Source: Escherichia coli (lineage in GTDB: Bacteria > Pseudomonadota > Gammaproteobacteria > Enterobacterales > Enterobacteriaceae). From it: 19,819 nt of DNA. The notes beneath the pieces are model-generated. The model made no database searches. It was not told where the DNA came from and worked only from the letters and a program-made list of their open reading frames with translations. Location: the NCBI RefSeq assembly GCF_003334315.1, contig NZ_QOWR01000071.1; one strand, given 5' to 3'. Positions 2,615-19,819 of this stretch are shown here, piece after piece; position 1 is the stretch's first letter; every line of letters starts with the position of its first letter. The position numbers and the translations under genes were made by a program.

Positions 2615-3116
2615 AGAGTTCGCGTAGCATCCGCACTTCACAATCGACATGGCCCGTGCAGCCAAGCGCATAGTCGATATGCTCAAAGCCCAAATGCTCA
2701 TAAAGCGCAATGGCTTCCTTTAAAAAAGCGGTCGTTTCCAGATAGCAGCGTTTGAAGCCCATCTCTCGTGCCTGCTCCATCGCCATTAAGGCCAGTTTTT
2801 TCGCCAGCCCTTTACCGCGAATAGCCGGAAGAAAATACATCTTTTGCAGTTCGCAAATGTCCGATTCACTACCTGCTAATGGCGCAATCCCACCGCCGCC
2901 GACCACTTCACCATCGAACTCAACCACCCAATATGCATGGCCAGGCTGACTATACACTTGATACAACTCGTCAAGGTTCGGATCGGCGACGGTGTAGCCT
3001 TTATCAGCGGTAAGACCGTATTCGGCGGATACCTGACGAATGACGCGGGCGATAGCGGGATTATCCTGCTGCGTCAGGCGACGCATTACAGGTGATTGCG
3101 GCGCAATGTTATTCAT
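2613..3116 (-). CDS. yjgM: GNAT-family N-acetyltransferase
   Basis: 167-aa ORF with an acetyl-CoA-binding style motif ([25 protein letters not shown]); position between rraB and yjgN. Confidence 0.85.
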
Positions 3117-3308
3117 AGTTTAACCCAATAAAAATAAAGTAATTATACATTTGTTTAATACCACTCTCTTCTTACGTGCGCAAGCGACTTATAAAGTAAT
3201 AAAGTTTTTGCCAGCCTATTACTGATAAGAGTATTGTAACGTGGCAGAACATTTTACTGTCTGTATCTATAAATTATATCAATGGATTTTTTAATTCAGG
3301 GAATTTTT

Positions 3309-4505
3309 ATGGCTCAAGTTATTAATGAAATGGATGTTCCGTCCCATTCGTTTGTTTTTCATGGCACAGGTGAGAGATATTTTCTTATTTGTGTGGTGAA
3401 TGTGTTGTTAACGATTATAACGCTAGGTATCTATTTACCATGGGCATTAATGAAATGTAAGCGTTATCTCTATGCTAATATGGAAGTTAACGGACAACGA
3501 TTTTCTTATGGAATTACCGGTGGGAATGTTTTTGTTAGTTGTCTTGTTTTTGTTTTTTTCTATTTCGCAATCTTAATGACAGTGTCAGCAGATATGCCGC
3601 TTGTTGGCTGTGTTTTGACTTTGTCACTGTTGGTTTTGCTTATATTTATGGCAGCAAAAGGACTGCGTTATCAGGCCTTGATGACCAGTCTCAACGGCGT
3701 AAGATTTAGTTTTAATTGCTCTTTGAAAGGGTTCTGGTGGGTAACCTTTTTCTTGCCGATTTTAATGGCCATTGGGATGGGGACTGTTTTCTTTATCTCG
3801 ACAAAGATGCTACATGCCAATAGTTCAAGTAGTGTTATTATATCTGTGGTTCTGATGGCAATAGTTGGTATTGTTTCCATTGGTATTTTTAATGGTACTT
3901 TATATAGTCTGGTAATGAGTTTTCTCTGGAGCAATACCAGTTTCGGTATACATCGTTTCAAGGTGAAATTAGATACTACGTATTGTATAAAATATGCCAT
4001 TCTCGCATTTTTAGCTTTATTACCTTTTCTCGCTGTTGCTGGTTATATTATCTTCGATCAAATATTAAATGCGTATGATAGTTTTGTGTATGCAAATGAT
4101 GATATTGAGAATTTACAGCAATTTATGGAAATGCAACGTAAAATGATAATCGCGCAGTTAATCTATTATTTTGGGATTGCTGTTAGCACCAGTTATTTAA
4201 CGGTGTCGTTGCGAAATCATTTTATGAGCAACCTGTCACTGAATGATGGGCGTATTCGTTTTCGCTCAACTTTAACTTACCACGGTATGCTTTATCGCAT
4301 GTGTGCGTTGGTAGTGATATCCGGGATTACGGGCGGTCTGGCTTATCCACTGCTGAAAATATGGATGATTGACTGGCAGGCAAAAAATACGTATTTGCTG
4401 GGCGATTTGGATGACCTTCCTTTAATCAATAAAGAAGAACAACCAGATAAAGGCTTCTTAGCCAGTATTTCACGGGGAATTATGCCTTCTTTACCATTTC
4501 TGTAA
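3309..4505 (+). CDS. yjgN: Inner membrane protein, DUF898 family
   Basis: Multi-pass hydrophobic ORF. Start placed at ATG 3309 (MAQVINEMDVPSHSFVFHGTGERYF) rather than the track start 3282, giving 398 aa as recalled for YjgN. Confidence 0.85.
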   Translation: MAQVINEMDVPSHSFVFHGTGERYFLICVVNVLLTIITLGIYLPWALMKCKRYLYANMEVNGQRFSYGITGGNVFVSCLVFVFFYFAILMTVSADMPLVGCVLTLSLLVLLIFMAAKGLRYQALMTSLNGVRFSFNCSLKGFWWVTFFLPILMAIGMGTVFFISTKMLHANSSSSVIISVVLMAIVGIVSIGIFNGTLYSLVMSFLWSNTSFGIHRFKVKLDTTYCIKYAILAFLALLPFLAVAGYIIFDQILNAYDSFVYANDDIENLQQFMEMQRKMIIAQLIYYFGIAVSTSYLTVSLRNHFMSNLSLNDGRIRFRSTLTYHGMLYRMCALVVISGITGGLAYPLLKIWMIDWQAKNTYLLGDLDDLPLINKEEQPDKGFLASISRGIMPSLPFL

Positions 4506-4510
4506 GAGAT

Positions 4511-4545
4511 AAAAAAGGCCGGAGCATTCTCCGGCCTTCGTTTTC
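4511..4545. terminator. Bidirectional intrinsic terminator between yjgN and valS
   Basis: 10-bp stem aaggccggag / ctccggcctt (4515-4524 / 4529-4538) with a 4-nt loop; A6 on one side and T4 on the other give U-tracts on both strands. Confidence 0.8.
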
Positions 4546-4558
4546 ATCACGGTGTTGA

Positions 4559-7414
4559 TTACAGCGCGGCGATAACAGCCTGCTGTTCAATCAGCTTCGC
4601 TTTCGCTTCCGCATAGCCTTCCAGCTTCTCACGCTCTTTCGCGATGACCGCTTCCGGTGCGCGGGCGACAAAGCCTTCATTCGCCAGCTTGTTCTCGATA
4701 CGGCTGATTTCGCCTTCGATCTTCGCCACTTCTTTCGCCAGACGCGCCAGCTCATCTTCTTTGTTGATGAGGCCAGCCATCGGGATCAGCAGCTCTGCGC
4801 CGTCGATGATCTTCGTAACGGAAACCGGACCTTTGTCATCGGCAGGCAGCACGGTGATGCTTTCCAGACGCGCCAGGGTTTGCAGGAAGCCACGGTTTTC
4901 ATTTACGCGACGTTCTGCATCCGCGCTGCAACCACGCAGCAGCAGCTCCAGCGGTTTGCCCGGCGCGATGTTCATTTCTGCACGGATGTTACGTACCGCA
5001 ACGATCGCCTGTTTCAGCCATTCGGTGTCGGCCAGTGCGGCTTCATCAACCTGAGATGCATCGTACTGCGGGAACGGCTGCAGCATGATGGTGTCGGCAG
5101 TGATACCGCAAAGTACTTTCACACGCTGCCAGATGGTTTCGGTGATGAACGGAATGATCGGATGCGCGAGGCGCAGCAGACCTTCCAGTACAGTCACCAG
5201 CGTATGGCGAGTACCGCGCAGTTCGGCTTCGGTGCCACCGTTCATTACCGGCTTGGTCAGCTCCAGATACCAGTCACAGAACTGGTTCCAGGTGAACTCA
5301 TACAGAATGCCTGCAGCGATATCGAAGCGGAAGCTGTCCAGCGCTTCGCGGTACGCTTTGATGGTCTGGTTGAACTCTGCCAGAATCCAGCGGTCCGCCA
5401 GCGACAGTGTCATTTCGCCGCCGTTAAAGCCGCAATCCTGACCTTCTGTGTTCATCAGCACAAAGCGGCTGGCGTTCCACAGCTTGTTACAGAAGTTACG
5501 GTAACCTTCCAGGCGCTTCATATCCCAGTTGATGTCACGACCGGTAGACGCCAGCGCCGCCAGGGTGAAGCGCAGGGCATCGGTGCCGTGCGGCTCAATG
5601 CCGTTCGGGAACTGTTTCTCGGTGCGCTTACGGATTTTGTCCGCCAGCTGCGGCTGCATCATATTGCCGGTACGTTTTTCCAGCAGTTCTGGCAGCGAAA
5701 TACCGTCAACCATATCCAGCGGGTCGATAACGTTACCCTTGGATTTGGACATCTTCTGGCCTTCGTCGTCACGAATCAGACCGGTCATGTAAACAGTGTG
5801 GAACGGCACCTGCGGTTTGCCATTTTCATCTTTGATGAAGTGCATGGTCATCATGATCATGCGGGCAATCCAGAAGAAGATGATGTCGAAGCCGGATACC
5901 ATCACGCTGGTTGGGTGGAACTGACGCAGGGCGTCGGTGTTTTCCGGCCAGCCAAGGGTAGAGAAGGTCCACAGTGCAGAAGAGAACCAGGTGTCGAGAA
6001 CGTCTTCGTCCTGACGCAGGGCAACGTCGGCACCGAGGTTATTTTCCTTGCGCACTTCTTCTTCGTTGCGGCCAACATAAACGTTACCTGCTTCGTCGTA
6101 CCATGCAGGGATACGGTGACCCCACCACAGCTGACGAGAGATACACCAGTCCTGAATATCGCGCATCCAGGAGAAGTACATGTTTTCGTACTGCTTCGGT
6201 ACGAACTGAATGTCGCCGTTCTCAACCGCTTCAACCGCCGGTTTCGCCAGTACATCGGCACGCACGTACCACTGGTCGGTCAGCATTGGTTCGATAACTA
6301 CGCCGCCACGGTCGCCGTAAGGAACGGTCAGGTCGTGCGGTTTAATTTCTTCCAGCAGGCCGAGTGCGTCAACCGCAGCAACGACTGCTTTACGTGCAGC
6401 AAAACGCTCGAGTTTCTGGAACTCTGCCGGGATTTCGCTGGAATAAACGTCAGATTCGTTACCTTTGGTATCGAACACCTGGGCGCTTTCACGGATATCG
6501 CCGTCAAAGGTCAGGATGTTGATCATCGGCAGCGCGTGACGTTTACCCACTTCATAGTCGTTAAAGTCGTGCGCCGGAGTGATTTTCACGCAGCCGGTGC
6601 CTTTTTCCATGTCGGCGTGTTCGTCGCCAACGATCGGAATACGACGGTTAACCAGCGGTAGAATGACATATTTGCCAATCAGGTCTTTGTAACGCGGATC
6701 TTCCGGGTTAACGGCCACGCCGGTATCGCCCAACAGGGTTTCCGGACGGGTAGTCGCAACCACCAGATAATCTTTACCGTCTGCGGTTTTCGCGCCGTCA
6801 GCCAGCGGATAGCGGATGTGCCACATCGAACCTTTCGATTCGCGGTTTTCCACTTCCAGGTCAGAGATAGCGGTGCGCAGTTTCGGATCCCAGTTTACCA
6901 GGCGTTTGCCACGGTAAATCAGGTCTTCTTTATACAGACGAACGAAAACTTCTTTCACCGCATTGGACAGGCCTTCGTCCATCGTGAAGCGTTCACGCTC
7001 CCAGTCGACGGAGTTGCCGAGACGGCGCATCTGACGGGTAATGGTGCCGCCGGATTCCGCTTTCCATTCCCAAATTTTGTCGATGAAAGCTTCGCGGCCG
7101 TAGTCGTGACGGGTTTTACCTTCTTCTGCGGCAATCTTGCGCTCAACGACCATCTGGGTAGCGATCCCGGCGTGGTCAGTACCGACCTGCCACAGGGTGT
7201 TTTTGCCCTGCATGCGCTGATAGCGGATCATGGTATCCATGATGGTTTGCTGGAAGGCGTGACCCATATGCAAACTGCCGGTGACGTTCGGCGGCGGGAT
7301 CATGATGCAGAAACTTTCCTGGCTTTCATCGCCATTAGGCTTAAAGTAGCCCTGCTTTTCCCAGTGCTCGTAAAGCGGCTGTTCGATATCTTGTGGGTTG
7401 TATGTCTTTTCCAT
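4559..7414 (-). CDS. valS: Valine--tRNA ligase
   Basis: 951-aa ORF with the class I aaRS HIGH-type motif ([12 protein letters not shown]) and KMSKS; length and sequence match ValS. Confidence 0.97.
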
Positions 7415-7857
7415 TATTTCCAGGTTGCCGTATTCAGGTTGAAACCAGCCACGCGGTAGGCTTTATAGCGTTCGCGCGCCAGTTGTTTCAGAGAATCTTC
7501 ATAAGGAACGAAGTCTACCACTTCTGTGAAAGCGGTGGCAAAATCTGCAAAGCTTGTTCGCAGACTAATCAATATATCGCGCGGGCTGCTGCTGCGTTTT
7601 TGCGGCCAGGCGATCTCCACCGGCGCACCGCCGCGCGGTCCTTCTCCCGCTAAATTATGCGGAACAAAGCTTTCTGCCGGACGCGCCCACAGGGCTTCAT
7701 CCAGCCGGTAAGCCTGCTTTTCATCTTCACAGGCGATGAGCACGCGCTTACCGCTGCGCCAACGTTCTGCGGCAATTTCACACACCAGCTGCTCAACGGC
7801 GCTTAAGCCATCGACGGTGGTGTCATTGTCCAGAAGGTAGAACGTCGCGTTTTTCAT
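7414..7857 (-). CDS. holC: DNA polymerase III chi subunit
   Basis: 147-aa [49 protein letters not shown]; its stop overlaps the valS start (ATGA at 7414), consistent with the holC-valS operon. Confidence 0.93.
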
Positions 7858-7889
7858 AAATGGGGCTTCTTGTGGTGGATTTAAATACG

Positions 7890-9725
<1,836 letters not shown>

Positions 9726-9988
9726 CTACGCTCCTGAATCTTAAAGACAACGGCGGTGGCTACAGATAGAATTGCAAGCTTTCGTAACTCATGTCCGCTG
9801 TTGCGATGACTTCGTGTTAATCTTAACGTTATTACGGCATTGGCACGTCAGAACAAAATCTGAGAGGTGAATCCGTTGAGTATAATTATCTTAGCGACGA
9901 TTTCGACGACTCAAGAGAATAAATGACGTTTAAGCCATGAAACAAGCTAAAATCCTGCAAAAGACGAGTTTTTACGGGCGTATTTAAA

Positions 9989-11089
9989 GTGATAATCATA
10001 AGATATCTGGTGCGGGAGACGCTCAAAAGCCAGCTGGCGATACTCTTCATCTTGCTTTTGATCTTCTTCTGTCAAAAGTTAGTGAGGATCCTCGGCGCAG
10101 CGGTTGACGGCGATATTCCGGCGAATCTGGTGCTCTCCCTTCTCGGGTTGGGCGTGCCGGAAATGGCGCAGCTTATCCTGCCATTAAGCCTGTTCCTCGG
10201 GCTGCTGATGACGCTGGGCAAACTGTATACCGAAAGTGAAATTACGGTAATGCATGCCTGCGGCCTGAGCAAAGCGGTTCTGGTGAAAGCGGCAATGATC
10301 CTTGCGGTATTCACGGCAATCGTCGCGGCGGTTAACGTGATGTGGGCGGGACCGTGGTCATCGCGTCATCAGGATGAAGTGTTAGCAGAAGCGAAAGCGA
10401 ACCCTGGCATGGCGGCGCTGGCGCAAGGGCAATTCCAGCAAGCGACTAATGGCAGCTCGGTGCTGTTCATCGAAAGCGTTGACGGCAGCGATTTCAAAGA
10501 TGTGTTCCTCGCACAAATTCGACCAAAAGGTAATGCACGTCCTTCTGTGGTGGTGGCCGATTCCGGACATTTAACCCAGCTGCGCGACGGCTCCCAGGTC
10601 GTCACTCTCAACCAGGGAACGCGCTTCGAAGGCACTGCACTGTTACGTGATTTCCGCATTACGGATTTCCAGGATTATCAGGCGATCATTGGTCACCAGG
10701 CGGTGGCGCTCGACCCGAACGATACCGACCAGATGGACATGCGCACATTATGGAACACTGACACCGATCGTGCTCGCGCAGAACTGAACTGGCGTATCAC
10801 GTTGGTATTCACCGTGTTTATGATGGCACTTATGGTCGTACCGCTGAGCGTGGTTAACCCACGTCAGGGACGCGTACTGTCGATGCTGCCAGCCATGCTG
10901 CTGTATCTACTTTTCTTCCTGATCCAGACCTCCCTGAAATCGAACGGCGGTAAAGGTAAGCTGGACCCGACGCTGTGGATGTGGACCGTTAACCTGATTT
11001 ATCTGGCTTTGGCGATTGTTCTCAACCTTTGGGACACCGTGCCGGTCCGCCGCCTGCGCGCCAGTTTTTCGCGTAAAGGAGCGGTGTGA
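9989..11089 (+). CDS. lptF: LPS export ABC transporter permease LptF
   Basis: 366-aa membrane ORF starting at GTG 9989 (MIIIRYLVRETLKSQLAILFILLL), immediately followed by lptG. Confidence 0.93.
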   Translation: MIIIRYLVRETLKSQLAILFILLLIFFCQKLVRILGAAVDGDIPANLVLSLLGLGVPEMAQLILPLSLFLGLLMTLGKLYTESEITVMHACGLSKAVLVKAAMILAVFTAIVAAVNVMWAGPWSSRHQDEVLAEAKANPGMAALAQGQFQQATNGSSVLFIESVDGSDFKDVFLAQIRPKGNARPSVVVADSGHLTQLRDGSQVVTLNQGTRFEGTALLRDFRITDFQDYQAIIGHQAVALDPNDTDQMDMRTLWNTDTDRARAELNWRITLVFTVFMMALMVVPLSVVNPRQGRVLSMLPAMLLYLLFFLIQTSLKSNGGKGKLDPTLWMWTVNLIYLALAIVLNLWDTVPVRRLRASFSRKGAV

Positions 11090-12171
11090 TGCAACCTTTT
11101 GGCGTACTTGACCGCTATATCGGTAAAACTATTTTCACCACCATCATGATGACGCTGTTCATGCTGGTGTCGCTGTCGGGCATTATCAAGTTTGTCGATC
11201 AGTTGAAAAAAGCCGGGCAGGGGAGTTACGACGCGTTAGGCGCAGGAATGTATACCTTGCTGAGCGTGCCGAAAGATGTGCAGATCTTCTTCCCGATGGC
11301 GGCTCTGCTTGGGGCGTTGCTTGGTCTTGGGATGCTGGCGCAGCGCAGCGAACTGGTGGTGATGCAGGCTTCTGGTTTTACCCGTATGCAGGTGGCGCTG
11401 TCGGTGATGAAAACCGCCATTCCGCTGGTCTTGCTGACGATGGCGATTGGCGAATGGGTTGCGCCGCAGGGCGAACAGATGGCGCGTAACTACCGTGCGC
11501 AGGCGATGTACGGCGGCTCGTTGCTCTCTACCCAGCAAGGCTTATGGGCGAAAGATGGCAACAACTTCGTCTACATTGAGCGGGTTAAAGGTGACGAAGA
11601 GTTAGGTGGCATCAGCATTTATGCCTTTAACGAGAATCGTCGTCTGCAATCCGTACGCTATGCCGCTACTGCGAAGTTTGACCCGGAACATAAAGTCTGG
11701 CGTCTGTCGCAGGTTGATGAATCTGATCTGACCAATCCGAAACAGATTACCGGTTCGCAGACGGTGAGCGGCACCTGGAAAACCAACCTCACGCCAGACA
11801 AACTGGGCGTGGTGGCGCTGGACCCGGATGCACTCTCCATTAGCGGTTTGCACAACTATGTGAAGTATCTGAAGTCGAGCGGTCAGGATGCCGGACGTTA
11901 TCAGCTCAACATGTGGAGCAAAATCTTCCAGCCGCTATCCGTGGCGGTGATGATGCTGATGGCGCTGTCGTTCATCTTTGGCCCACTGCGTAGCGTACCG
12001 ATGGGCGTGCGTGTGGTCACCGGTATCAGCTTCGGTTTTGTCTTCTACGTACTGGACCAGATCTTCGGCCCGCTGACGTTGGTTTATGGCATCCCGCCGA
12101 TCATCGGCGCACTGTTGCCAAGCGCCAGCTTCTTCTTAATCAGCCTGTGGCTGTTAATGAGAAAATCGTAA
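11089..12171 (+). CDS. lptG: LPS export ABC transporter permease LptG
   Basis: ATG at 11089 overlaps the lptF stop (GTGATG); product begins MQPFGVLDRYIGKTIFTTIMMTLFMLVSLSG, 360 aa. Confidence 0.93.
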   Translation: MQPFGVLDRYIGKTIFTTIMMTLFMLVSLSGIIKFVDQLKKAGQGSYDALGAGMYTLLSVPKDVQIFFPMAALLGALLGLGMLAQRSELVVMQASGFTRMQVALSVMKTAIPLVLLTMAIGEWVAPQGEQMARNYRAQAMYGGSLLSTQQGLWAKDGNNFVYIERVKGDEELGGISIYAFNENRRLQSVRYAATAKFDPEHKVWRLSQVDESDLTNPKQITGSQTVSGTWKTNLTPDKLGVVALDPDALSISGLHNYVKYLKSSGQDAGRYQLNMWSKIFQPLSVAVMMLMALSFIFGPLRSVPMGVRVVTGISFGFVFYVLDQIFGPLTLVYGIPPIIGALLPSASFFLISLWLLMRKS

Positions 12172-12289
12172 CCAAGCAAGGGAGCGAAAGCTCCCTTTCA
12201 CATTGTTGATAAAGTCAAATACGAGTTCGATCGGTCCCCTCGCCCCTTTGGGGAGAGGGTTAGGGTGAGGGGCACAGACCGCACCTGAC

Positions 12290-13792
12290 TTACCTTCTTC
12301 TCCCCCCCAGCAAACTCCCCAACATCCCGCGTACAATCTGATTCGTCACCTGGCGAGCGGCGCTTTTGGCCATTGTTTGCACCACACCATCTTTCTTCCC
12401 GCCGCGTGGTCCGGTAGTGCCAAACAAAATATCCTTCAATCCACCAAGAATACCGTCATCCACCGCCACCTCTTTCCCTTTCGCGGCAGGATTATTTTGC
12501 TGCTCGGTACTGGCCTGAAAGCCTTTTTGCAACATCTCATAGGCGGATTCTCGGTCCACCTCATCCTCATATTTGCCATACACCGGGGAGTGATTAATCA
12601 GGCCATTACGCTCATCTTCCGTCACCGGCCCCATTCGCGAACAAGGCGCGATCACCATCGCCCGCTCCACCACTGAAGGACTTCCTTTCACATCAAGAAA
12701 CGAGATTAACGCCTCGCCGGTGCCCAGTTCCTGAATCGCCTTTTCGGTATCAAACGCCGGATTGGCCCGCATGGTTTGCGCCGCAGCTTTTACCGCTTTC
12801 TGATCTTTGGGCGTAAAAGCACGCAAAGCGTGTTGAACGCGATTACCGAGCTGCCCGAGCACGTTATCCGGAATATCAGACGGGTTTTGCGAAACGAACC
12901 AGACGCCCACGCCTTTTGAGCGAATAAGCCTTATCACCTGCTCAATCTTATCCAGCAGTACCTGCGGTGCGTCATTAAACAGCAGATGTGCTTCGTCGAA
13001 GAAAAACACCAGTTTCGGCTTCTCCAGATCGCCTGCTTCCGGCAATTGTTCATACAACTCCGAGAGCATCCACAACAGGCTGGCGGCATATAGTTTCGGC
13101 ATCTGATAAAGCTTTTCGGCGCTGAGGATATTGATAACGCCTTTACCGTTGGCATCGGTGCGCATCCAGTCTTTGATATCCAGCATCGGCTCGCCAAAGA
13201 AATGCTCCGCACCTTGTTGCTCCAGCGACAGTAATCCGCGCTGGATGGCACCAACCGATGCGCTACTGATATTTCCGTACTGATTCTGGAAAGATTTGGC
13301 GTTATCGCCGATGTACTGGGTAATCGCCCGCAAATCTTTAAAGTCGAGCAGTAACAGCCCCTGATCGTCAGCAATGCGGAAGATGATATTCAGCACGCCA
13401 GACTGCACATCGTTGAGATTCAACAGCCGCGCCAGCAACAGCGGCCCCAGGTCTGAAACCGTCGCCCGCACCGGATGGCCTTTCTCGCCAAAGATATCCC
13501 ACACCACCACCGGATTGGCATGCGGTTGCCAGTCATTGACGCCGATATTTTTAAGCCTTGTGAGCAGTTTTTCCGACGCCGTTCCTGCCTGCGCGATACC
13601 GGTCAGATCGCCTTTCACATCAGCCATAAACACCGGCACGCCGATTTCCGACAATGACTCTGCCAGTTTTTGCAGCGTAACGGTTTTACCCGTCCCCGTT
13701 GCGCCAGTAATCAGCCCGTGACGGTTAGCCATTCCCGGCAGTAAAAACAGTTCTGTGTCCGGCGTGCGGGCAATTAACAGGGGTTCGCTCAT
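12290..13792 (-). CDS. yjgR: DUF853-family P-loop NTPase
   Basis: Walker A GATGTGKT near the N-terminus. Start placed at ATG 13792 ([16 protein letters not shown]), giving 500 aa, rather than the longer track ORF from 13840. Confidence 0.85.
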
Positions 13793-13891
13793 GAGATTTC
13801 CTCCAGTTTCCTGCCTGGAGTATAGGCAACGGCTGTGCACTCTTCACCGCTAAATTCAGCAGATTGCGAGACGCCTTCCAAAGAGATTTAA

Positions 13892-13915
13892 GTGCCGGGC
13901 GACAGGCACCCGGCA
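13892..13915 (-). terminator. Putative hairpin terminator downstream of ahr
   Basis: GC-rich inverted repeat tgccggg / cccggca (13893-13899 / 13909-13915), 7 bp 3' of the ahr stop; the minus-strand flank after it is moderately T-rich. Confidence 0.45.
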
Positions 13916-13921
13916 AAGGGA

Positions 13922-14941
13922 TCAGAAGTCGGCTTTCAGGACCACGCGGTAGCGCGCTTTACCATCGCGTACATGCTGGATGGCGTCGTTAATTTTCGAC
14001 ATCGGGAACAGTTCGGTGGTCGGCGCAACCTTGCTGCGGGCGGCAAAACGCATCAGCTTACGCAGCTCATAAGGCGTGCCGGTAGCAGAACCAGAGACGC
14101 TGCGATCGCCCGCAATTAACGTAAAGGCCGGAACAGACAGCGGCGTGAGAACCGCACCGACCGTATGGAAATTACCGCCATAGGTCAGCGCCTCAAAATA
14201 AGGCTGCCAGTCGAGGCTGACGTTGACGGTGTTGATAATGAGATCAAACTGCCCCGCCAGTGCTTTCAGTGCCTGCGGATCGCGGCTATTCACCACTTTA
14301 TCGGCACCCATCGCCAGTACTTCCTGCTCTTTCGCCGGATTAGAACTAAAGGCCGTCACCTCGCATCCCATTGCGTGCAGAAGTTTTATAGCGATATGCC
14401 CCAGCCCGCCAATACCAATTACCCCAACGCGGCTGGTAGCAGTGATATGGTGCATCAACAGTGGTTTAAAGACCGTGATACCACCACACAACAGCGGCCC
14501 GGCGGACTCGATATCAATATTTTCTGGCAGTGGAATCACCCATTGCCAGTCCGCACGCAACTTCTCGGCAAAACCACCACGATTCATAATTGTTGGCACC
14601 GCACCTTGCTCGCAGTTGATCTGATTACCGCTAATACAGGCGTCGCAGTGACCACAGCTACGCGCCGTCCAGCCAATCCCGACACGCTGACCGACCTGCA
14701 AACCTTTATCCTGCGCGGCGCTCCCGAGTGCCACCACGCGCCCAATCACCTCATGCCCGGCAACCAGCGGATATTGTGAAAATCCCCATTCGTTATCGAT
14801 CATCGACAGATCGGAATGGCAGATCCCGCAGTAATCCACCTGCACTTCAACATCTTGTGGCTTCAGCTCACCGGGATCGTACTCATAAACTTCCAGTTCG
14901 CCGCCCGCTTCTTTTGCGGCATAGCTTTTTATCATCGACAT
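13922..14941 (-). CDS. ahr: NADPH-dependent aldehyde reductase, zinc-type alcohol dehydrogenase family
   Basis: Start at ATG 14941 ([26 protein letters not shown]), 339 aa; contains the Zn-ADH motif [12 protein letters not shown] and the Rossmann motif [10 protein letters not shown]. Lies directly upstream of leuX as yjgB/ahr does in K-12. Confidence 0.9.
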
Positions 14942-15136
14942 TTTTGGGTCCTTCTCTGGTGTTGTTTGGGAAGTGTAGAGCATGGCAGGGCGGGGTGCCT
15001 GGAGTGTGACAAAGGTTACACATCGCGGTATGCAATGCTGAAAATTTCAGCACTTAGCGAGGTGCGAGCAAGCTGGCGCTTGCATGGTGGCGTGCGACAG
15101 GTATAATCCACAACGTTTTCCGCATACCTCTTCAGT

Positions 15137-15221
15137 GCCGAAGTGGCGAAATCGGTAGACGCAGTTGATTCAAAATCAACCGTAGAAATACGTGCCGGTT
15201 CGAGTCCGGCCTTCGGCACCA
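15137..15221 (+). tRNA. leuX: tRNA-Leu (anticodon CAA)
   Basis: GCCGAAGTGGCGAAATCGGTAGACGCAGTTGATTCAAAATCAACCGTAGAAATACGTGCCGGTTCGAGTCCGGCCTTCGGCACCA: cloverleaf with long variable arm, anticodon loop TTCAAAA giving CAA, and 3' CCA. Confidence 0.95.
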
Positions 15222-15234
15222 AAAGTATGTAAAT

Positions 15235-15258
15235 AGACCTCAACTGAGGTCTTTTTTT
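15235..15258 (+). terminator. Intrinsic terminator of leuX
   Basis: Stem agacctc / gaggtct (15235-15241 / 15246-15252) with a 4-nt loop, followed by T7. Confidence 0.85.
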
Positions 15259-15407
15259 ATGCCTGAAATCCAGTATTTACCTACCTTTCCCGCTATATTA
15301 ACTCTCTCAAGGTCAACCGACATCAACGTACATCTACCAACACATGTTGGTACAGATGATGGTATTTCCGGTTCGATAATGCTTGTACCAACAGGGAGGG
15401 GATAAGC

Positions 15408-16673
15408 ATGGCGTTAACAGATATCAAGGTCAGAACAGCCAAGCCAATGGATAAGCAGTACAAACTGACCGATGGCAGCGGTATGCACCTGCTTGTCCAT
15501 CCTAATGGTTCTAAGTACTGGCGTTTGCAGTACCGTTATGATGGCAAGCAAAAGATGTTGGCACTTGGGATTTACCCTGAAATAACACTGGCGGATGCCA
15601 GAGCACGTCGTGACGACGCGCGTAAGCTGCTAGCGAATGGCGTCGATCCGGGAGACAAAAAGAAAAATGATAAGGTTGAACAGAGTAAAGCACGAACCTT
15701 TAAAGAGGTCGCGATCGAGTGGCATGGCACCAATAAAAAGTGGTCTGAAGATCACGCCCATCGTGTGCTAAAAAGCTTGGAAGATAATCTCTTCGCGGCA
15801 CTTGGTGAGCGTAATATCGCTGAGCTAAAAACTCGTGATTTATTAGTACCCATTAAAGCCGTAGAGACATCTGGACGTCTTGAAGTGGCTTCCCGCCTTC
15901 AACAGCGCACCACGGCCATCATGCGTTATGCAGTGCAAAGCGGGTTAATTGATTACAATCCGGCGCAAGAGATGGCGGGGGCGGTTGCTTCCAGTAATCG
16001 ACAGCATCGTCCGGCGCTGGAGTTAAGGCGTATCCCTGAGTTGCTTGAGAAAATAGACAGCTATACCGGCAGGCCGTTAACCCGCTGGGCGACAGAACTC
16101 ACTCTGCTTATCTTTATTCGGTCCAGTGAGCTGCGTTTTGCTCGCTGGTCAGAAATCGATTTTGAAACGTCAATGTGGACTATCCCGCCCGAGCGAGAGC
16201 CTATTCCTGATGTGAAACATTCTCAGCGAGGATCAAAGATGCATACACCGCATCTGGTGCCGCTTTCAAAGCAGGCGCTGGCGATCCTGAAGCAGATAAA
16301 ACAGTTCTGTGGCGAACATGAGCTGATTTTTATTGGCGATCACGATCCGCGTAAGCCCATGAGCGAGAACACGGTAAACAGTGCGCTACGGGTGATGGGT
16401 TATGACACTAAGGTTGAAGTTTGCGGCCACGGCTTCCGTACAATGGCCTGTAGTTCGTTAATTGAGTCAGGACTATGGTCGAAGGATGCGGTGGAAAGGC
16501 AGATGAGCCATATGGAACGCAATTCGGTGAGGGCGGCGTATATCCATAAAGCGGAACATCTGGATGAGCGCAAGCTGATGTTGCGGTGGTGGGCGGATTT
16601 TCTGGATGCGAACCGGGAGAAAGGGATTACGCCGTTTGACTACGCGAAGATCAATCGGGGTAATGGCGAGTGA
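15408..16673 (+). CDS. P4-type tyrosine integrase (site-specific recombinase) at the leuX tRNA
   Basis: 421-aa ORF with strong SD (agggagggg) before the ATG; catalytic-domain signatures HGFR and RAAYIH (His-X-X-Arg ... Tyr); begins about 190 bp after the tRNA 3' end, the typical layout for P4-like integrative islands. Confidence 0.9.
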   Translation: MALTDIKVRTAKPMDKQYKLTDGSGMHLLVHPNGSKYWRLQYRYDGKQKMLALGIYPEITLADARARRDDARKLLANGVDPGDKKKNDKVEQSKARTFKEVAIEWHGTNKKWSEDHAHRVLKSLEDNLFAALGERNIAELKTRDLLVPIKAVETSGRLEVASRLQQRTTAIMRYAVQSGLIDYNPAQEMAGAVASSNRQHRPALELRRIPELLEKIDSYTGRPLTRWATELTLLIFIRSSELRFARWSEIDFETSMWTIPPEREPIPDVKHSQRGSKMHTPHLVPLSKQALAILKQIKQFCGEHELIFIGDHDPRKPMSENTVNSALRVMGYDTKVEVCGHGFRTMACSSLIESGLWSKDAVERQMSHMERNSVRAAYIHKAEHLDERKLMLRWWADFLDANREKGITPFDYAKINRGNGE

Positions 16674-16714
16674 GTTGAATGCCGTTATTCCTCGGCTGAT
16701 GTTTAAATTTAAAA

Positions 16715-16757
16715 GACCAACCAGCCCGCTTAGGACTGGTTGGTCGCTGTATTTTTT
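16715..16757 (+). terminator. Intrinsic terminator after the integrase gene
   Basis: Perfect 10-bp stem gaccaaccag / ctggttggtc (16715-16724 / 16736-16745) followed by a T-run at 16751-16757. Confidence 0.8.
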
Positions 16758-16877
16758 CAGAATTCCATCTGCCAGGTACAGAGCCGTCAGGCAAAATGGA
16801 TGTCTGCAATAATGCCTTGAATGTACATATAGTTGCGAGCATCATCGCAAATATGTGCTCATGGATTCTCCAACGCA

Positions 16878-17756
16878 ATGACCTCTGACAAAACCCTAAA
16901 ACAAGCGATATCAAATATCACCATCTGGCGCAAAGGCGAACAACGTGCGCCACATAAGCCATTATTGCTGCTGTACGTTCTCTCACACTATCGGCAGGGT
17001 CATGGTCGCATGTTTAACTATGGTTCTGAAATCTACGAGCCCCTGTTGGATCTCCTGGAACGTTATGGACCGCAGCGCCGTGACCAGCGCCCGGACATGC
17101 CGTTCTGGCGTCTGAAGGGCGATGGCTTCTGGGAACTACATAACGCGGAACTGTGCTCAACCAGTGGTAGCCGCCAGCCGCCCCGACGTGAACTCATTGA
17201 ATATAATGTCGCTGGTGGATTTGATGCCGATAATTTTGCGTTGGTGGCAAAAAATCACAGGTTAATTGATACGCTGGCTCAGCAGCTCCTGGAGGCGCAT
17301 TTCCCGGCCAGTATTCAGGAAGAGATCGCTGACGAGATGGGTTTTGATATTCGCACCTCTCTCCGTCAACGCGATCCGAAGTTTCGCCAGATGGTGCTAC
17401 GTGCTTACAATTATCAGTGCGCTATCTGCGGCTTTAACATGCGCCACGACAATGCGCCGATTGCTCTGGAAGCCGCTCATATCAGATGGAAGCAGCACCA
17501 TGGCCCTTGCGAAGTACCTAATGGCCTGGCATTGTGTGCAATCCACCATAAAGCGTTTGATCGCGGTTCGATTGGCCTGGATGAAAATATGCGTGTGGTG
17601 GTTTCCGGTGCGGTAAATGGTGGTGGAGTGGTACAGCGACTGTTCTGGGATTTTGCGGGAAAGGCGATTGCGTTGCCACCGGTTAAAGAAAATTATCCGG
17701 GCGAGCAGTTTGTTGAATGGCACAGAAAAGAGGTGTTCAGAGGAGAGGGAATCTGA
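16878..17756 (+). CDS. Two-domain protein: N-terminal uncharacterised (possible DNA-modification reader) domain fused to a C-terminal HNH nuclease; candidate type IV-like restriction or defence nuclease
   Basis: HNH motif readable directly in the C-terminus: YQCAICGF ... LEAAHIRW ... NGLALCAIHHKAFD. The N-terminal roughly 170 aa has no HNH features but distinctive motifs (PHKPLLLLYVL, MPFWRLKGDGFWEL). Start chosen at the first ATG (16878); the track ORF begins at a TTG at 16833. First cargo gene after the integrase. Confidence 0.6.
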   Translation: MTSDKTLKQAISNITIWRKGEQRAPHKPLLLLYVLSHYRQGHGRMFNYGSEIYEPLLDLLERYGPQRRDQRPDMPFWRLKGDGFWELHNAELCSTSGSRQPPRRELIEYNVAGGFDADNFALVAKNHRLIDTLAQQLLEAHFPASIQEEIADEMGFDIRTSLRQRDPKFRQMVLRAYNYQCAICGFNMRHDNAPIALEAAHIRWKQHHGPCEVPNGLALCAIHHKAFDRGSIGLDENMRVVVSGAVNGGGVVQRLFWDFAGKAIALPPVKENYPGEQFVEWHRKEVFRGEGI

Positions 17757-17825
17757 AATAGATTGATTTTTTTCTTTAGATTATTAAGTTAGTTATTGAT
17801 AACGGCTTTATTATGTGGAGGGTAT

Positions 17826-18146
17826 ATGGTTAGGCGTAATGTGAAATGGTTGTCTTTCTTTATTTTTATTTCTATTCTGTCTTTATTTCGCGGGTGGTCG
17901 TTTATTAAACAGTTTCATCTGTCGGCATTTACTGTACTTGCTGTATTTATTTATGCGTTGTATAGCTATATAAGAATTTCAACTTTTGTAAATAAGATGG
18001 AGTTAAATAATAAATTTATTGTTTTTCTTAGGTTGAAGAAATTTGTTTTGTTTTTTAAGCAAGGGACTAAGCTCACTATTCTGGAAAGAAATATTGTCTT
18101 TTTTTCAGTTTATATACCTTGTCTGCTTATCATGTGCTTATATTAG
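17826..18146 (+). CDS. Hypothetical small hydrophobic protein (about 106 aa, 2 predicted TM segments); may be a composition artefact
   Basis: ATG at 17826 preceded by GGAGG (17817-17821); hydrophobic stretches LSFFIFISILSLF and AFTVLAVFIYALYSYI. The region is very AT-rich, which favours F/I/L codons, so coding status is uncertain. Confidence 0.3.
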   Translation: MVRRNVKWLSFFIFISILSLFRGWSFIKQFHLSAFTVLAVFIYALYSYIRISTFVNKMELNNKFIVFLRLKKFVLFFKQGTKLTILERNIVFFSVYIPCLLIMCLY

Positions 18147-18447
18147 GTAAAATGCATGTCATTAATAAATGGTTAAATGTGGGTTTGTATAACTAATTCA
18201 TAGGTGTCATTCCAGTTTTATTAGTTAAATTTGTCGTTCTGCTGCTTCAATGTGCCGAAAATAATTTTTTGTTCTTAAATAAGTATTGGCTGATAAATTG
18301 TCTCTCCTTTAATAAAATTTGAAGTTGTTCACGGTTTATAGGGTTCTTCAATTATTAATGTTTTTTCTTTGTTAGCATCTTTCCTCAATGCTATGTATCT
18401 TTATAAAGATACGACCTAATCTTATTTGTCATTTTTAAAATCCTGTA

Positions 18448-18944
18448 TTATATTGTGAAGTATAATAAGCTAAGGAACGAGCCGAAAATAAAAACATGTC
18501 TAAATATTGCTAATCCAACCAGTTCATCAAGGCGACAGCCTTTCCATGATGCATTCCTCCAGCCTAGCTGAAACAATGTTGACCATGATAGAATAAATAT
18601 TCCGGTGGCGCTAACGGCGTCTTTCCATTCTAATGGATAGATAATCCGAAATTTCCCTGAGTAAAATCCAATCGCAATTACTATAAAAAGCACACCCAAC
18701 ATTATTAGCACTGACGCAAGAATGGACTTTCTTAAGTCATCACAATACTCTTCGAGGGAGTGTTTGTGATCATCTGGATTTAGACTGTATTTCCCCGCCT
18801 CAAGTTTTCTCTTATATTCATCCTTCTCAAGTTCAAAAGCCATCTTATTGATAGCACCAAGCGTAATAAATTTTTCCTTGTTGAAGAAAAAATAAAACAT
18901 TGCTTTATAAATATTTTCTTTTTTAGGTAGTTGTGCTGTGTTCA
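18448..18944 (-). CDS. Hypothetical membrane protein (about 165 aa; soluble charged N-terminal part plus 3 predicted TM helices)
   Basis: ORF on the minus strand with ATG at 18944 (MNTAQLPKKENIYKAMFYFFF); the track's longer version starts at a TTG at 18981. Predicted TM segments ILASVLIMLGVLFIVIAIGFY, GIFILSWSTLFQLGW and LVGLAIFRHVFIFGSFLSLLYF. No recognisable family from sequence alone. Confidence 0.4.
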
Positions 18945-18970
18945 TATTCTCATAAAAAATAAGTAACGAT

Positions 18971-18993
18971 GTTGACAGCAAGAAGCTGTCAAC
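18971..18993 (-). other. Perfect 9-bp stem hairpin between the hsdR-like remnant and the membrane-protein gene (possible terminator or leader structure)
   Basis: gttgacagc (18971-18979) / gctgtcaac (18985-18993) with a 5-nt loop, 8 nt 3' of the hsdR-like stop; the T-run lies 9 nt further on, so this is not a textbook intrinsic terminator. Confidence 0.4.
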
Positions 18994-19000
18994 ATGAAAT

Positions 19001-19366
19001 TCACATCGTCCAATGATTCGAAATAACTTCCGCTTGTTTCAAAATTAACTCCACCGCACCCGGCGTTTTATCTGGCGGATACTTATACCGACGCAGAGTC
19101 TGGCGAACCAAGATACGCAGCCTTGCACGAACGCTCTCGCGCACCTGCCAGTCAACGGTAGTTGATTGCCTCAACTTCAAGGTGACTTCTATCGCCAGTT
19201 TCTTAAGCACCTCATCCCCTAACTCTCGGACGGCACTTTCGTTTTCTGCCAGTGCGTCGTAGAAAGCGATTTCGTCAGGATTCAGGCCAAGCGCATCATC
19301 ACGCTCCATTGCAGACTGAAAATCCTTCGCCATCTGGATCAGCTCTTCAATCACCTGCGCCGTCTC
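19001..19366 (-). pseudogene. 3' remnant (about 122 codons) of a type I restriction enzyme R-subunit-like gene, truncated by IS1 insertion
   Basis: ORF ...LNPDEIAFYDALAENESAVRELGDEVLKKLAIEVTLKLRQSTTVDWQVRESVRARLRILVRQTLRRYKYPPDK... resembles the conserved HsdR C-terminal domain (DUF3387-like) as I recall it. The frame stays open upstream right to the IS1 boundary at 19366/19367, as expected for an insertion into a longer gene. Confidence 0.5.
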
Positions 19367-19819
19367 GGTAATGGTCCCAACTTATTGATAGTGTTTTATG
19401 TTCAGATAATGCCCGATTACTTTGTCATGCAGCTCCACCGATTTTGAGAACGACAGCGACTTCCGTCCCAGCCGTGCCAGGTGCTGCCTCAGATTCAGGT
19501 TATGCCGCTCAATTCGCTGCGTATATCGCTTGCTGATTACGTGCAGCTTTCCCTTCAGGCGGGATTCATACAGCGGCCAGCCATCCGTCATCCATATCAC
19601 CACGTCAAAGGGTGACAGCAGGCTCATAAGACGCCCCAGCGTCGCCATCGTGCGTTCACCGAATACGTGCGCAACAACCGTCTTCCGGAGCCTGTCATAC
19701 GCGTAAAACAGCCAGCGCTGGCGCGATTTAGCCCCGACATAGCCCCACTGTTCGTCCATTTCCGCGCAGACGATGACGTCACTGCCCGGCTGTATGCGCG
19801 AGGTTACCGACTGCGGCCT
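19367..19819 (-). mobile_element. IS1 insertion sequence, partial (right inverted repeat and insB); same orientation as the copy at 1-204; continues beyond window end
   Basis: 19367 onward reads ggtaatggtcccaacttattgatagtgttttatgttcagataatg, the reverse complement of the IS1 right end from memory (variant at 2-3 positions); the remainder to the window edge matches insB. Confidence 0.85.
19382..19819 (-). CDS. insB: IS1 InsB (transposase C-terminal part; partial CDS truncated by window end)
   Basis: Translation ...[125 protein letters not shown] matches IS1 InsB; the frame continues open to the window edge. Confidence 0.9.

Follow-up and report, generated by a model that had tools for sequence, protein, structure and literature searches.

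The leuX locus of Escherichia coli is known as defence hotspot #37 (PMC10121019, Hochhauser et al. 2023; PMC12707154, EcoSal Plus review 2025), the most occupied of the 41 defence hotspots of this species (97.3% of genomes, 31 system types), where an arm-type integrase at the left end is accompanied by variable defence cargo that includes type I restriction-modification (R-M) and phosphorothioate (PT)-related systems (PMC10121019; PMC12707154). How this hotspot is mobilised 'could not be readily determined' (PMC10121019). The same tRNA gene is the site of GI-leuX in sequence type 131 (ST131) strains (PMC3203889, PMC4134206), an island that was published for EC958 as a 79.1-kb composite also carrying fec (PMC3203889). 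Here we analyze a 19,819-nt stretch of an E. coli contig (NZ_QOWR01000071.1, assembly GCF_003334315.1; hereinafter, the window) that contains leuX followed by an integrase gene, a PT-dependent restriction endonuclease (PT-REase) gene, two small open reading frames (ORF106 and ORF165), a remnant of the type I restriction gene hsdR and a copy of IS1. With a probability of about 90%, positions 15137-19366 represent the attL-proximal 4.1 kb of a genomic island of the P4-integrase family that is inserted at the 3' end of leuX in hotspot #37. The window possesses both the leuX anchor and, in the PT-REase, a defence system of this hotspot and, given that leuX is a published defence hotspot, the island is of a known kind: it is one occupant of hotspot #37, in a degraded state, with no difference in kind from those already described.

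The loci used for comparison come from E. coli AH65 (L001), K-12 (L003), the ST131 strain SaT040 (L004), E. coli W (L006) and phage P4 (L014). The leuX island of E. coli W shares with the window the site and the gene order leuX-int-REase (integrase WP_001219046.1, then WP_000199891.1), and shares with the complete relatives of the window a WYL/GTPase/DUF932/RadC/CbtA backbone and the right attachment site, attR. The 3' two-thirds of the integrase gene agree with those of the window at 97-99% identity. The W island differs in the 5' third of the integrase and the P' arm, which are of another type (54-67% identity), and the two sequences part at 17747/17748, a junction that precedes the REase stop codon by 9 nt; from there, in place of the ORF106, ORF165 and DUF4268-type R-M genes of the window-type island, E. 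coli W has a gene for a 5'-nucleotidase, two hypothetical genes and another type I R-M system, with no IS1. The islands of AH65 and SaT040 are of the same type as that of the window but are not truncated by IS1, and SaT040 combines this cargo with a W-type integrase 5' end. KpLE2 of K-12 (cryptic prophage PR-Y) has the same attachment site and a homologous integrase gene, intB. Homology with K-12 extends from ahr across leuX into intB and is lost within the 3' end of the latter, at window position 16655, past which K-12 carries IS2, yjgX, nanXY, fec, yjhFGHI and sgc as opposed to the PT-REase and type I R-M genes of the window; in the absence of any cargo homology beyond 16655, identity of the island with KpLE2 is ruled out. 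An initial annotation of the window, made from its sequence alone, had already claimed cargo different from that of KpLE2; this holds for everything past 16655 but not for the integrase, which is an intB homologue rather than a different gene. Finally, satellite phage P4 resembles the island in the integrase family, in the 20-bp core that lies within leuX and in how the arm-type repeats are arranged ahead of int, and differs in the sequence of these repeats (TGTTGGTAC vs TTGGGGGCA).

Attachment site and integrase

The leuX gene (15137-15221, + strand), the target of integration, encodes tRNA-Leu(CAA), as predicted by ARAGORN and by a match to Rfam RF00005 (59.4 bits), and is identical to K-12 leuX. 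Its final 20 nt, GAGTCCGGCCTTCGGCACCA (15202-15221, +), constitute the core of the left attachment site, attL, and are the same as the attP core annotated in P4 (L014 1318-1337), an identity that was confirmed by alignment of the latter with the leuX end. A terminator scan identified the leuX terminator, a hairpin followed by a T-run, immediately beyond (15235-15259, +); at the attR of E. coli W, this terminator stretch is repeated along with the core, and the flank is identical for ~58 nt past the core. Between leuX and the integrase gene, a pattern search detected a cluster of arm-type repeats, TG(T/A)TGGTA(C), at 15334-15393 (not assigned to a strand), in the layout of the P4 P' arm and at positions that correspond to the annotated arm repeats of P4. 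The copies are located at 15334-15342 (-), 15345-15353 (+), 15357-15365 (+, weaker) and 15385-15393 (-), with an extra copy within int (15556-15564); 4 of the 6 matches of the pattern in the window fall inside 230 nt, and the weaker copy was read by eye from the sequence rather than given by the search. The locus has the anatomy of integration at a tRNA 3' end, with a core that is the tRNA end and an integrase gene that adjoins attL, starting 186 nt past leuX. By analogy with P4, the integrase would bind the arm-type repeats that precede its gene and recombine at the 20-bp core, such that integration would regenerate the tRNA at attL, with part of the tRNA end duplicated at attR.

The integrase gene (15408-16673, +) encodes a 421-aa protein with 58.5% identity to P4 Int across 97% of the query (tblastn, E = 1e-152), in agreement with the P4-type integrase that the initial annotation had put about 190 bp after leuX. 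The protein is assigned to the PHROG 1 integrase family and contains the Pfam domains Arm-DNA-bind_3 (PF13356, residues 3-87), Phage_int_M (PF22022) and Phage_integrase (PF00589, residues 209-383); the tyrosine-recombinase motifs IRSSELR (237), HGFR (341), SHMERN (367) and AAYIH (376) are all present and the reading frame is unbroken. K-12 intB, to which the gene is 85.6% identical overall at the nucleotide level, is a pseudogene, interrupted by a stop at codon 19, whereas the window gene is intact. When identity to K-12, W and SaT040 was read in 100-nt windows along the gene, it proved to be a mosaic intB allele. The leuX-int spacer is 96.7% identical to that of K-12, and this spacer together with the first ~400 nt of int shows 88-97% identity to K-12 intB but only 54-67% to W and SaT040; from ~16200 on, the relationship is reversed, with 96-100% identity to W and SaT040 and 77-81% to K-12. 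The breakpoint lies within the gene (window 15237-16220), separating a K-12 intB-like 5' part from a 3' part of the E. coli W/ST131 type. Among the 5,426 complete E. coli genomes that were searched for all population counts given here, 3,217 encode integrase homologues, and this particular allele is represented, at an identity of at least 95%, in only 49 records. A terminator-like hairpin with a 13-bp stem follows the integrase stop codon (16715-16745, no strand assigned).

A predicted phosphorothioate-dependent restriction endonuclease

The first cargo gene (16878-17756, +) encodes the HNH protein of the initial annotation, which can now be named as a PT-dependent restriction endonuclease of the EcoWI type that combines a sulfur-binding domain (SBD) with an HNH domain (292 aa, 33.5 kDa; these coordinates use the RefSeq start at 16878, and the mechanically called 307-aa ORF begins at 16833). 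The protein matches NCBIfam NF045808 ('phosphorothioated DNA-binding restriction endonuclease') with 444.5 bits, the cut-off being 180, over positions 2-284 of the 284 in the profile. The N-terminal residues 1-142 (16-157 of the 307-aa ORF) are homologous to the sulfur-binding domains crystallised from ScoMcrA and SprMcrA, with phmmer matches to 5ZMO, 5ZMM and 7CC9 (E-values of 2.5e-6 to 5e-4). In the alignment, 'PHKP' of the window protein corresponds to 'LHRP' of ScoMcrA, HK being an accepted variant of the HR motif of this domain (PMC7461809), and the 'YP' position of ScoMcrA is occupied by 'MP'. An HNH_2 domain (PF13391) spans residues 196-250 of the 307-aa ORF, with intact Cys and His residues (CAIC...AAH...N...CAIHH), and PF26340 is recorded for the homologues in two further loci (L015 and L016).

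The window protein is identical in 288 of 290 residues to WP_000199891.1 of E. coli W, which occupies the same position after leuX-int; the two substitutions, H37L and M45L, are both in the SBD. EcoWI has been described as a dimer with a published mass of 33.4 kDa that cleaves GpsAAC/GpsTTC at N7/N6 in the presence of Mg2+ and abolishes the transformation of cells with dnd+ plasmids (PMC7461809). From the name of the enzyme, the mass (33.41 kDa for WP_000199891.1) and the family, we infer that WP_000199891.1 is EcoWI. The near identity of the sequences implies that the window enzyme very likely acts like EcoWI on phosphorothioated DNA, in which case it would bind GpsAAC/GpsTTC sites as a dimer, cut nearby and restrict DNA that arrives from dnd+ donors.

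Traces of related genes are present elsewhere in the leuX variable region. A 70%-identical remnant of the SBD part of a second PT-REase gene is found in K-12 beside nanS (L003 42276-42395, -), at the far end of this region. In both AH65 and YZ22PE106, the site of this K-12 remnant is taken by an annotated restriction-endonuclease remnant, named in AH65 as a PT-REase fragment (L001 41533-41682, -), and a separate HNH endonuclease gene (L001 41819-42469 in AH65).

Distribution, composition and complete relatives

The whole arrangement, at a coverage of at least 80%, is present in 64 of the 5,426 genomes (1.2%), and comparison of leuX regions across these genomes shows that this gene order is not core. 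The PT-REase gene is found in 242 genomes (4.5%; in 187 at a coverage of at least 80%), the low-GC block downstream of it in 91, and an integrase 3' end contiguous with the PT-REase gene in 177. The initial description of a strain-specific island is to be amended accordingly: the island is accessory, at 1.2-4.5% of genomes, but its type is found in dozens to hundreds of strains, W and ST131 among them.

Base composition separates the island from the chromosome to a limited extent. With the core part of the window (4600-15136; 54.3% GC) as the reference, the GC content is 50.5% in the integrase gene, 51.6% in the HNH gene and 51.1% in the hsdR remnant; the only strongly low part is the 1.24-kb stretch 17757-19000, at 31.4%, which is also the only one where the dinucleotide signature departs from that of the core. 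The low-GC DNA that had been noted after the integrase and the composition shift that had been expected across the island are accordingly confined to this block, the HNH gene and the hsdR remnant being at ~51%. Both in GC content and in dinucleotides, the genes for the integrase and the PT-REase stay inside the range of the core part of the window, and the signature of the hsdR remnant does not depart from the core either. A second low-GC stretch, 3000-4600 (35-38% GC), is yjgN, a core gene that is annotated in the relatives too; therefore, low GC alone is no marker of an island in this window.

The complete relative AH65 is 100% identical to the window over 15000-19366 and 99.9% identical over 8000-19366; the island of SaT040 has the same gene order at 96.4% identity. 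The complete relatives AH65, SaT040 and E. coli W carry islands of 21-23 kb. In the two of these that are of the window type and have no IS1, AH65 and SaT040, the sequence continues collinearly past 19366 into hsdR-DUF4268-hsdS-hsdM (with a TIR protein in SaT040), followed by a backbone that comprises genes for WYL, GTPase, AlpA-like helix-turn-helix (HTH), 'inovirus Gp2', DUF932, RadC, YeeU/CbtA and DUF4942 proteins and a RelE/ParE pair. A backbone of WYL, GTPase, 'inovirus Gp2', DUF932, RadC, YeeU/CbtA and DUF4942 genes is typical of CP4-type cryptic elements. The AlpA-like HTH gene is present only in the complete relatives.

The right edge of the relatives' island is marked by CGGCCTTCGCACCA, the predicted attR, which equals the leuX end except for one missing G; a far-end repeat of the leuX 3' terminus outside the window had been anticipated by the initial annotation, and the complete relatives bear this out with a copy, CGGCCTTCG-CACCA, in which one base is missing. 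This attR is located at 43092-43105 in SaT040 (L004) and at 37311-37324 in E. coli W (L006), and AH65 (L001) has a rearranged version. The copy was recovered by blastn-short and alignment, the one-base deletion having hidden it from substitution-only searches: when up to 3 substitutions were allowed, no match to the leuX 3' end was obtained in the window, AH65, K-12 or SaT040. The window itself contains no second copy of the leuX 3' end, and no attR-like repeat was found in K-12. Past the attR of SaT040 there is a diverged copy of the leuX-int spacer with integrase remnants, and past that of E. coli W, a complete second integrase; judging from these sequences, a second, older island lies in tandem beyond attR.

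The hsdR remnant and IS1

The island part of the window ends with the 3' remnant of a type I restriction R-subunit gene (19001-19366, -), the last 121 codons of which are preserved in frame; this fragment aligns with positions 910-1024 of the 1029 in the PADLOC REase_I profile (E = 2.9e-32), and a full hsdR gene (3,135 bp), collinear with the window up to 19366, is annotated in AH65. The gene is cut by IS1 (19367-19819, -), of which the window contains the right inverted repeat, GGTAATGGTCCCAACTTATTGAT, and the 3' part of insB before the element runs off the end; it is recognized by the NCBIfam profile transpos_IS1 and is 99.1% identical to the IS1 of strain PSS-13. The end coordinate 19366 given in the initial annotation is exact, as this is the base before the terminal inverted repeat of IS1, and the HNH protein, the two small membrane-protein ORFs and the hsdR-like remnant were all found where it had placed them. 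The hsdR::IS1 junction is absent from all the complete E. coli genomes searched, and an exact-pattern search of contigs was also without a match.

A complete type I R-M system is not present in the window, which retains only the 121 hsdR codons and neither hsdM nor hsdS. Because IS1 leaves only the C-terminal part of HsdR, type I restriction is inactivated, so that the type I system here is, as far as the sequence indicates, dead or displaced. The second cargo unit of the island would then have been a type I R-M operon with a trailing membrane-protein gene, from which IS1 removed or displaced most of hsdR. In PSS-13, IS1 is at a nearby position and is joined straight to fimB, the rest of the island and nanCMS being deleted, which makes an IS1-mediated deletion plausible in the window genome as well.

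Positions 1-204 of the window are the final ~200 bp of a further IS1, oriented like the 453-bp IS1 part at 19367-19819, so that the 19.2-kb yjgL-to-hsdR segment sits between two direct IS1 copies. The left IS1 interrupts a low-GC hypothetical gene between tabA and argF (L002 430-2004), presumably the yjgL of K-12. The paired IS1 ends may simply be contig breaks in an IS1-rich genome.

Nature and state of the island

Several observations weigh against the interpretation of the region as an attL-proximal island segment. The window stops within IS1, without attR, excisionase, hsdM or hsdS; the attR of the relatives is imperfect, with a one-base deletion, further rearrangement in AH65 and absence in K-12; the compositional contrast with the core is weak outside the 1.24-kb block; and no accession for EcoWI is given in the main texts or in one supplement file of the EcoWI papers, which is why its equation with WP_000199891.1 is indirect. 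A more radical alternative is that the DNA next to leuX is ancestral core DNA with an unremarkable GC difference. This proposal would fit with the integrase and PT-REase genes, whose GC content and dinucleotide signature do not leave the core range of the window, and with the integrase homologues in 3,217 of the genomes. It is nevertheless the least probable of the alternatives and is ruled out by the pattern of presence and absence, with the PT-REase gene in 4.5% and the whole arrangement in 1.2% of genomes, unrelated cargo in K-12, and a sequence in E. coli W that departs from that of the window 9 nt ahead of the REase stop codon; the attR and the tandem integrase remnants of the relatives are further at odds with it. 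Only marginally more credible, and still highly improbable, is a satellite prophage like P4, in which a defence hotspot adjoins int and P4 genes for replication and capsid hijacking are present. No P4 primase (alpha), sid, delta, psu or cos is annotated in the islands of AH65, SaT040 and W (a comparison at the level of annotation), which instead carry the WYL, GTPase, 'inovirus Gp2', DUF932, RadC, YeeU/CbtA and DUF4942 genes and, because the complete relatives are without the P4 replication and capsid genes, the element is not considered a P4 satellite, despite the 58.5% identity of its integrase to P4 Int and the use of the same core in leuX. Such satellites do occur at hotspot #37 (PMC10121019), and they are known to carry defence hotspots (10.1101/2021.01.21.427644; PMC9122126).

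A less extreme possibility is that the island is complete and mobile, IS1 being a simple insertion in hsdR that is followed by ~17 kb with the AlpA-like gene and attR. In favour of this version, the integrase is intact, and in the relatives without IS1 a full hsdR and an island of 21-23 kb continue collinearly after 19366. We nonetheless consider it doubtful, given that in PSS-13, the closest IS1-bearing relative, the equivalent sequence is lost up to fimB and nanCMS is missing, that attR is degenerate even in complete relatives, and that the window shows nothing past IS1. Under the preferred interpretation, a degraded occupant of hotspot #37, the island is probably immobilised in this genome, and the imperfect attR of the relatives implies that their islands, too, may no longer excise.

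The region matters little beyond annotation. Among the variable sites of the E. coli chromosome, leuX is the best known, serving as the P4 attachment site and as the location of KpLE2, of GI-leuX in ST131 and of hotspot #37; islands of the present type are already found and annotated in RefSeq genomes, that of E. coli W among them. It does illustrate the decay and reshuffling of the locus, in the mosaic integrase, the sharp cargo junction, the degenerate attR and the truncation by IS1. The occurrence of the same REase with two integrase 5' types and two sets of cargo points to homologous recombination between conserved anchors. These comparisons, which involve few genomes, suggest, more tentatively than the proposal for ORF165 made below, that the cargo of hotspot #37 might be exchanged by homologous recombination rather than by site-specific integration, a possibility that bears on the published uncertainty over the mobilisation of this hotspot.

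The low-GC block and the ORF165 family

Two convergent ORFs are located in the low-GC block. The first, ORF106 (17826-18146, +), which is unannotated in the RefSeq relatives, might encode a small membrane protein with three hydrophobic segments; the sequence GGAGGG is found 3 nt before its ATG. Its relatives, from E. coli and Salmonella, are only those at 76-99% identity, and searches against NCBIfam, PADLOC and PHROG produced no match. Compared with these relatives, ORF106 shows 5 synonymous and 2 non-synonymous changes, a density ~1/3 of that in the adjacent spacer, suggesting weak constraint, and it keeps adjoining the PT-REase gene in L015 and L016, where the downstream genes differ. The AT-rich spacer (18147-18447, no strand assigned; 28% GC) that separates the two ORFs is poorly conserved.

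ORF165 (18448-18945, -), located directly downstream of hsdR and annotated as hypothetical in the relatives, encodes a conserved helical membrane protein of 165 aa. Its homologues in E. coli and Salmonella, at 47-93% identity, share invariant motifs, and on this conservation ORF165 is judged to be a real gene family. Profile searches of NCBIfam, Pfam, PADLOC and PDB yielded no match, and among the PHROGs one family without an assigned function matches the N-terminal half of the protein; the AlphaFold model is all-helical and confident, with a predicted local distance difference test (pLDDT) value of 82, and has no Foldseek match. A hairpin with an 11-bp stem (18969-18995, -) separates the start of ORF165 from the stop codon of hsdR.

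In each of the six contexts read, the ORF165 family gene directly follows a gene for a restriction R subunit, in the same orientation. The upstream gene is a type I hsdR in L009, L012 and L013, three arrangements other than that of the island type in the window, and a type III-like res gene beside an N6_N4 methyltransferase in three more (L008, L010 and L011). It is conceivable, albeit on balance unlikely, that the family is a so far undescribed accessory component of helicase-type restriction enzymes. If so, ORF165 could, for instance, tether the R subunit to the membrane or be a membrane-damaging back-up effector. This family is the sole new lead from the region.

Other features of the window

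A second polymorphism of presence and absence is found just upstream of leuX: in E. coli W, yjgR and ahr are separated by the idnR-idnT-idnO-idnD/idnK (GntII) cluster, and in K-12, idnD and idnK flank ahr in the stretch examined; the cluster is absent from the window (13840-13922), AH65, PSS-13 and SaT040. A promoter scan of the window gave fewer sites than shuffled sequence, and its result was not used. Rfam matches at gathering score identify Ysr276 at 8970-9164 and two tandem copies of naRNA4, which derives from repetitive extragenic palindromes/bacterial interspersed mosaic elements (REP/BIME), at 7965-8040 and 8061-8136; this naRNA4 pair accounts for the 88.7% internal repeat that blastn detects at 7902-8208.

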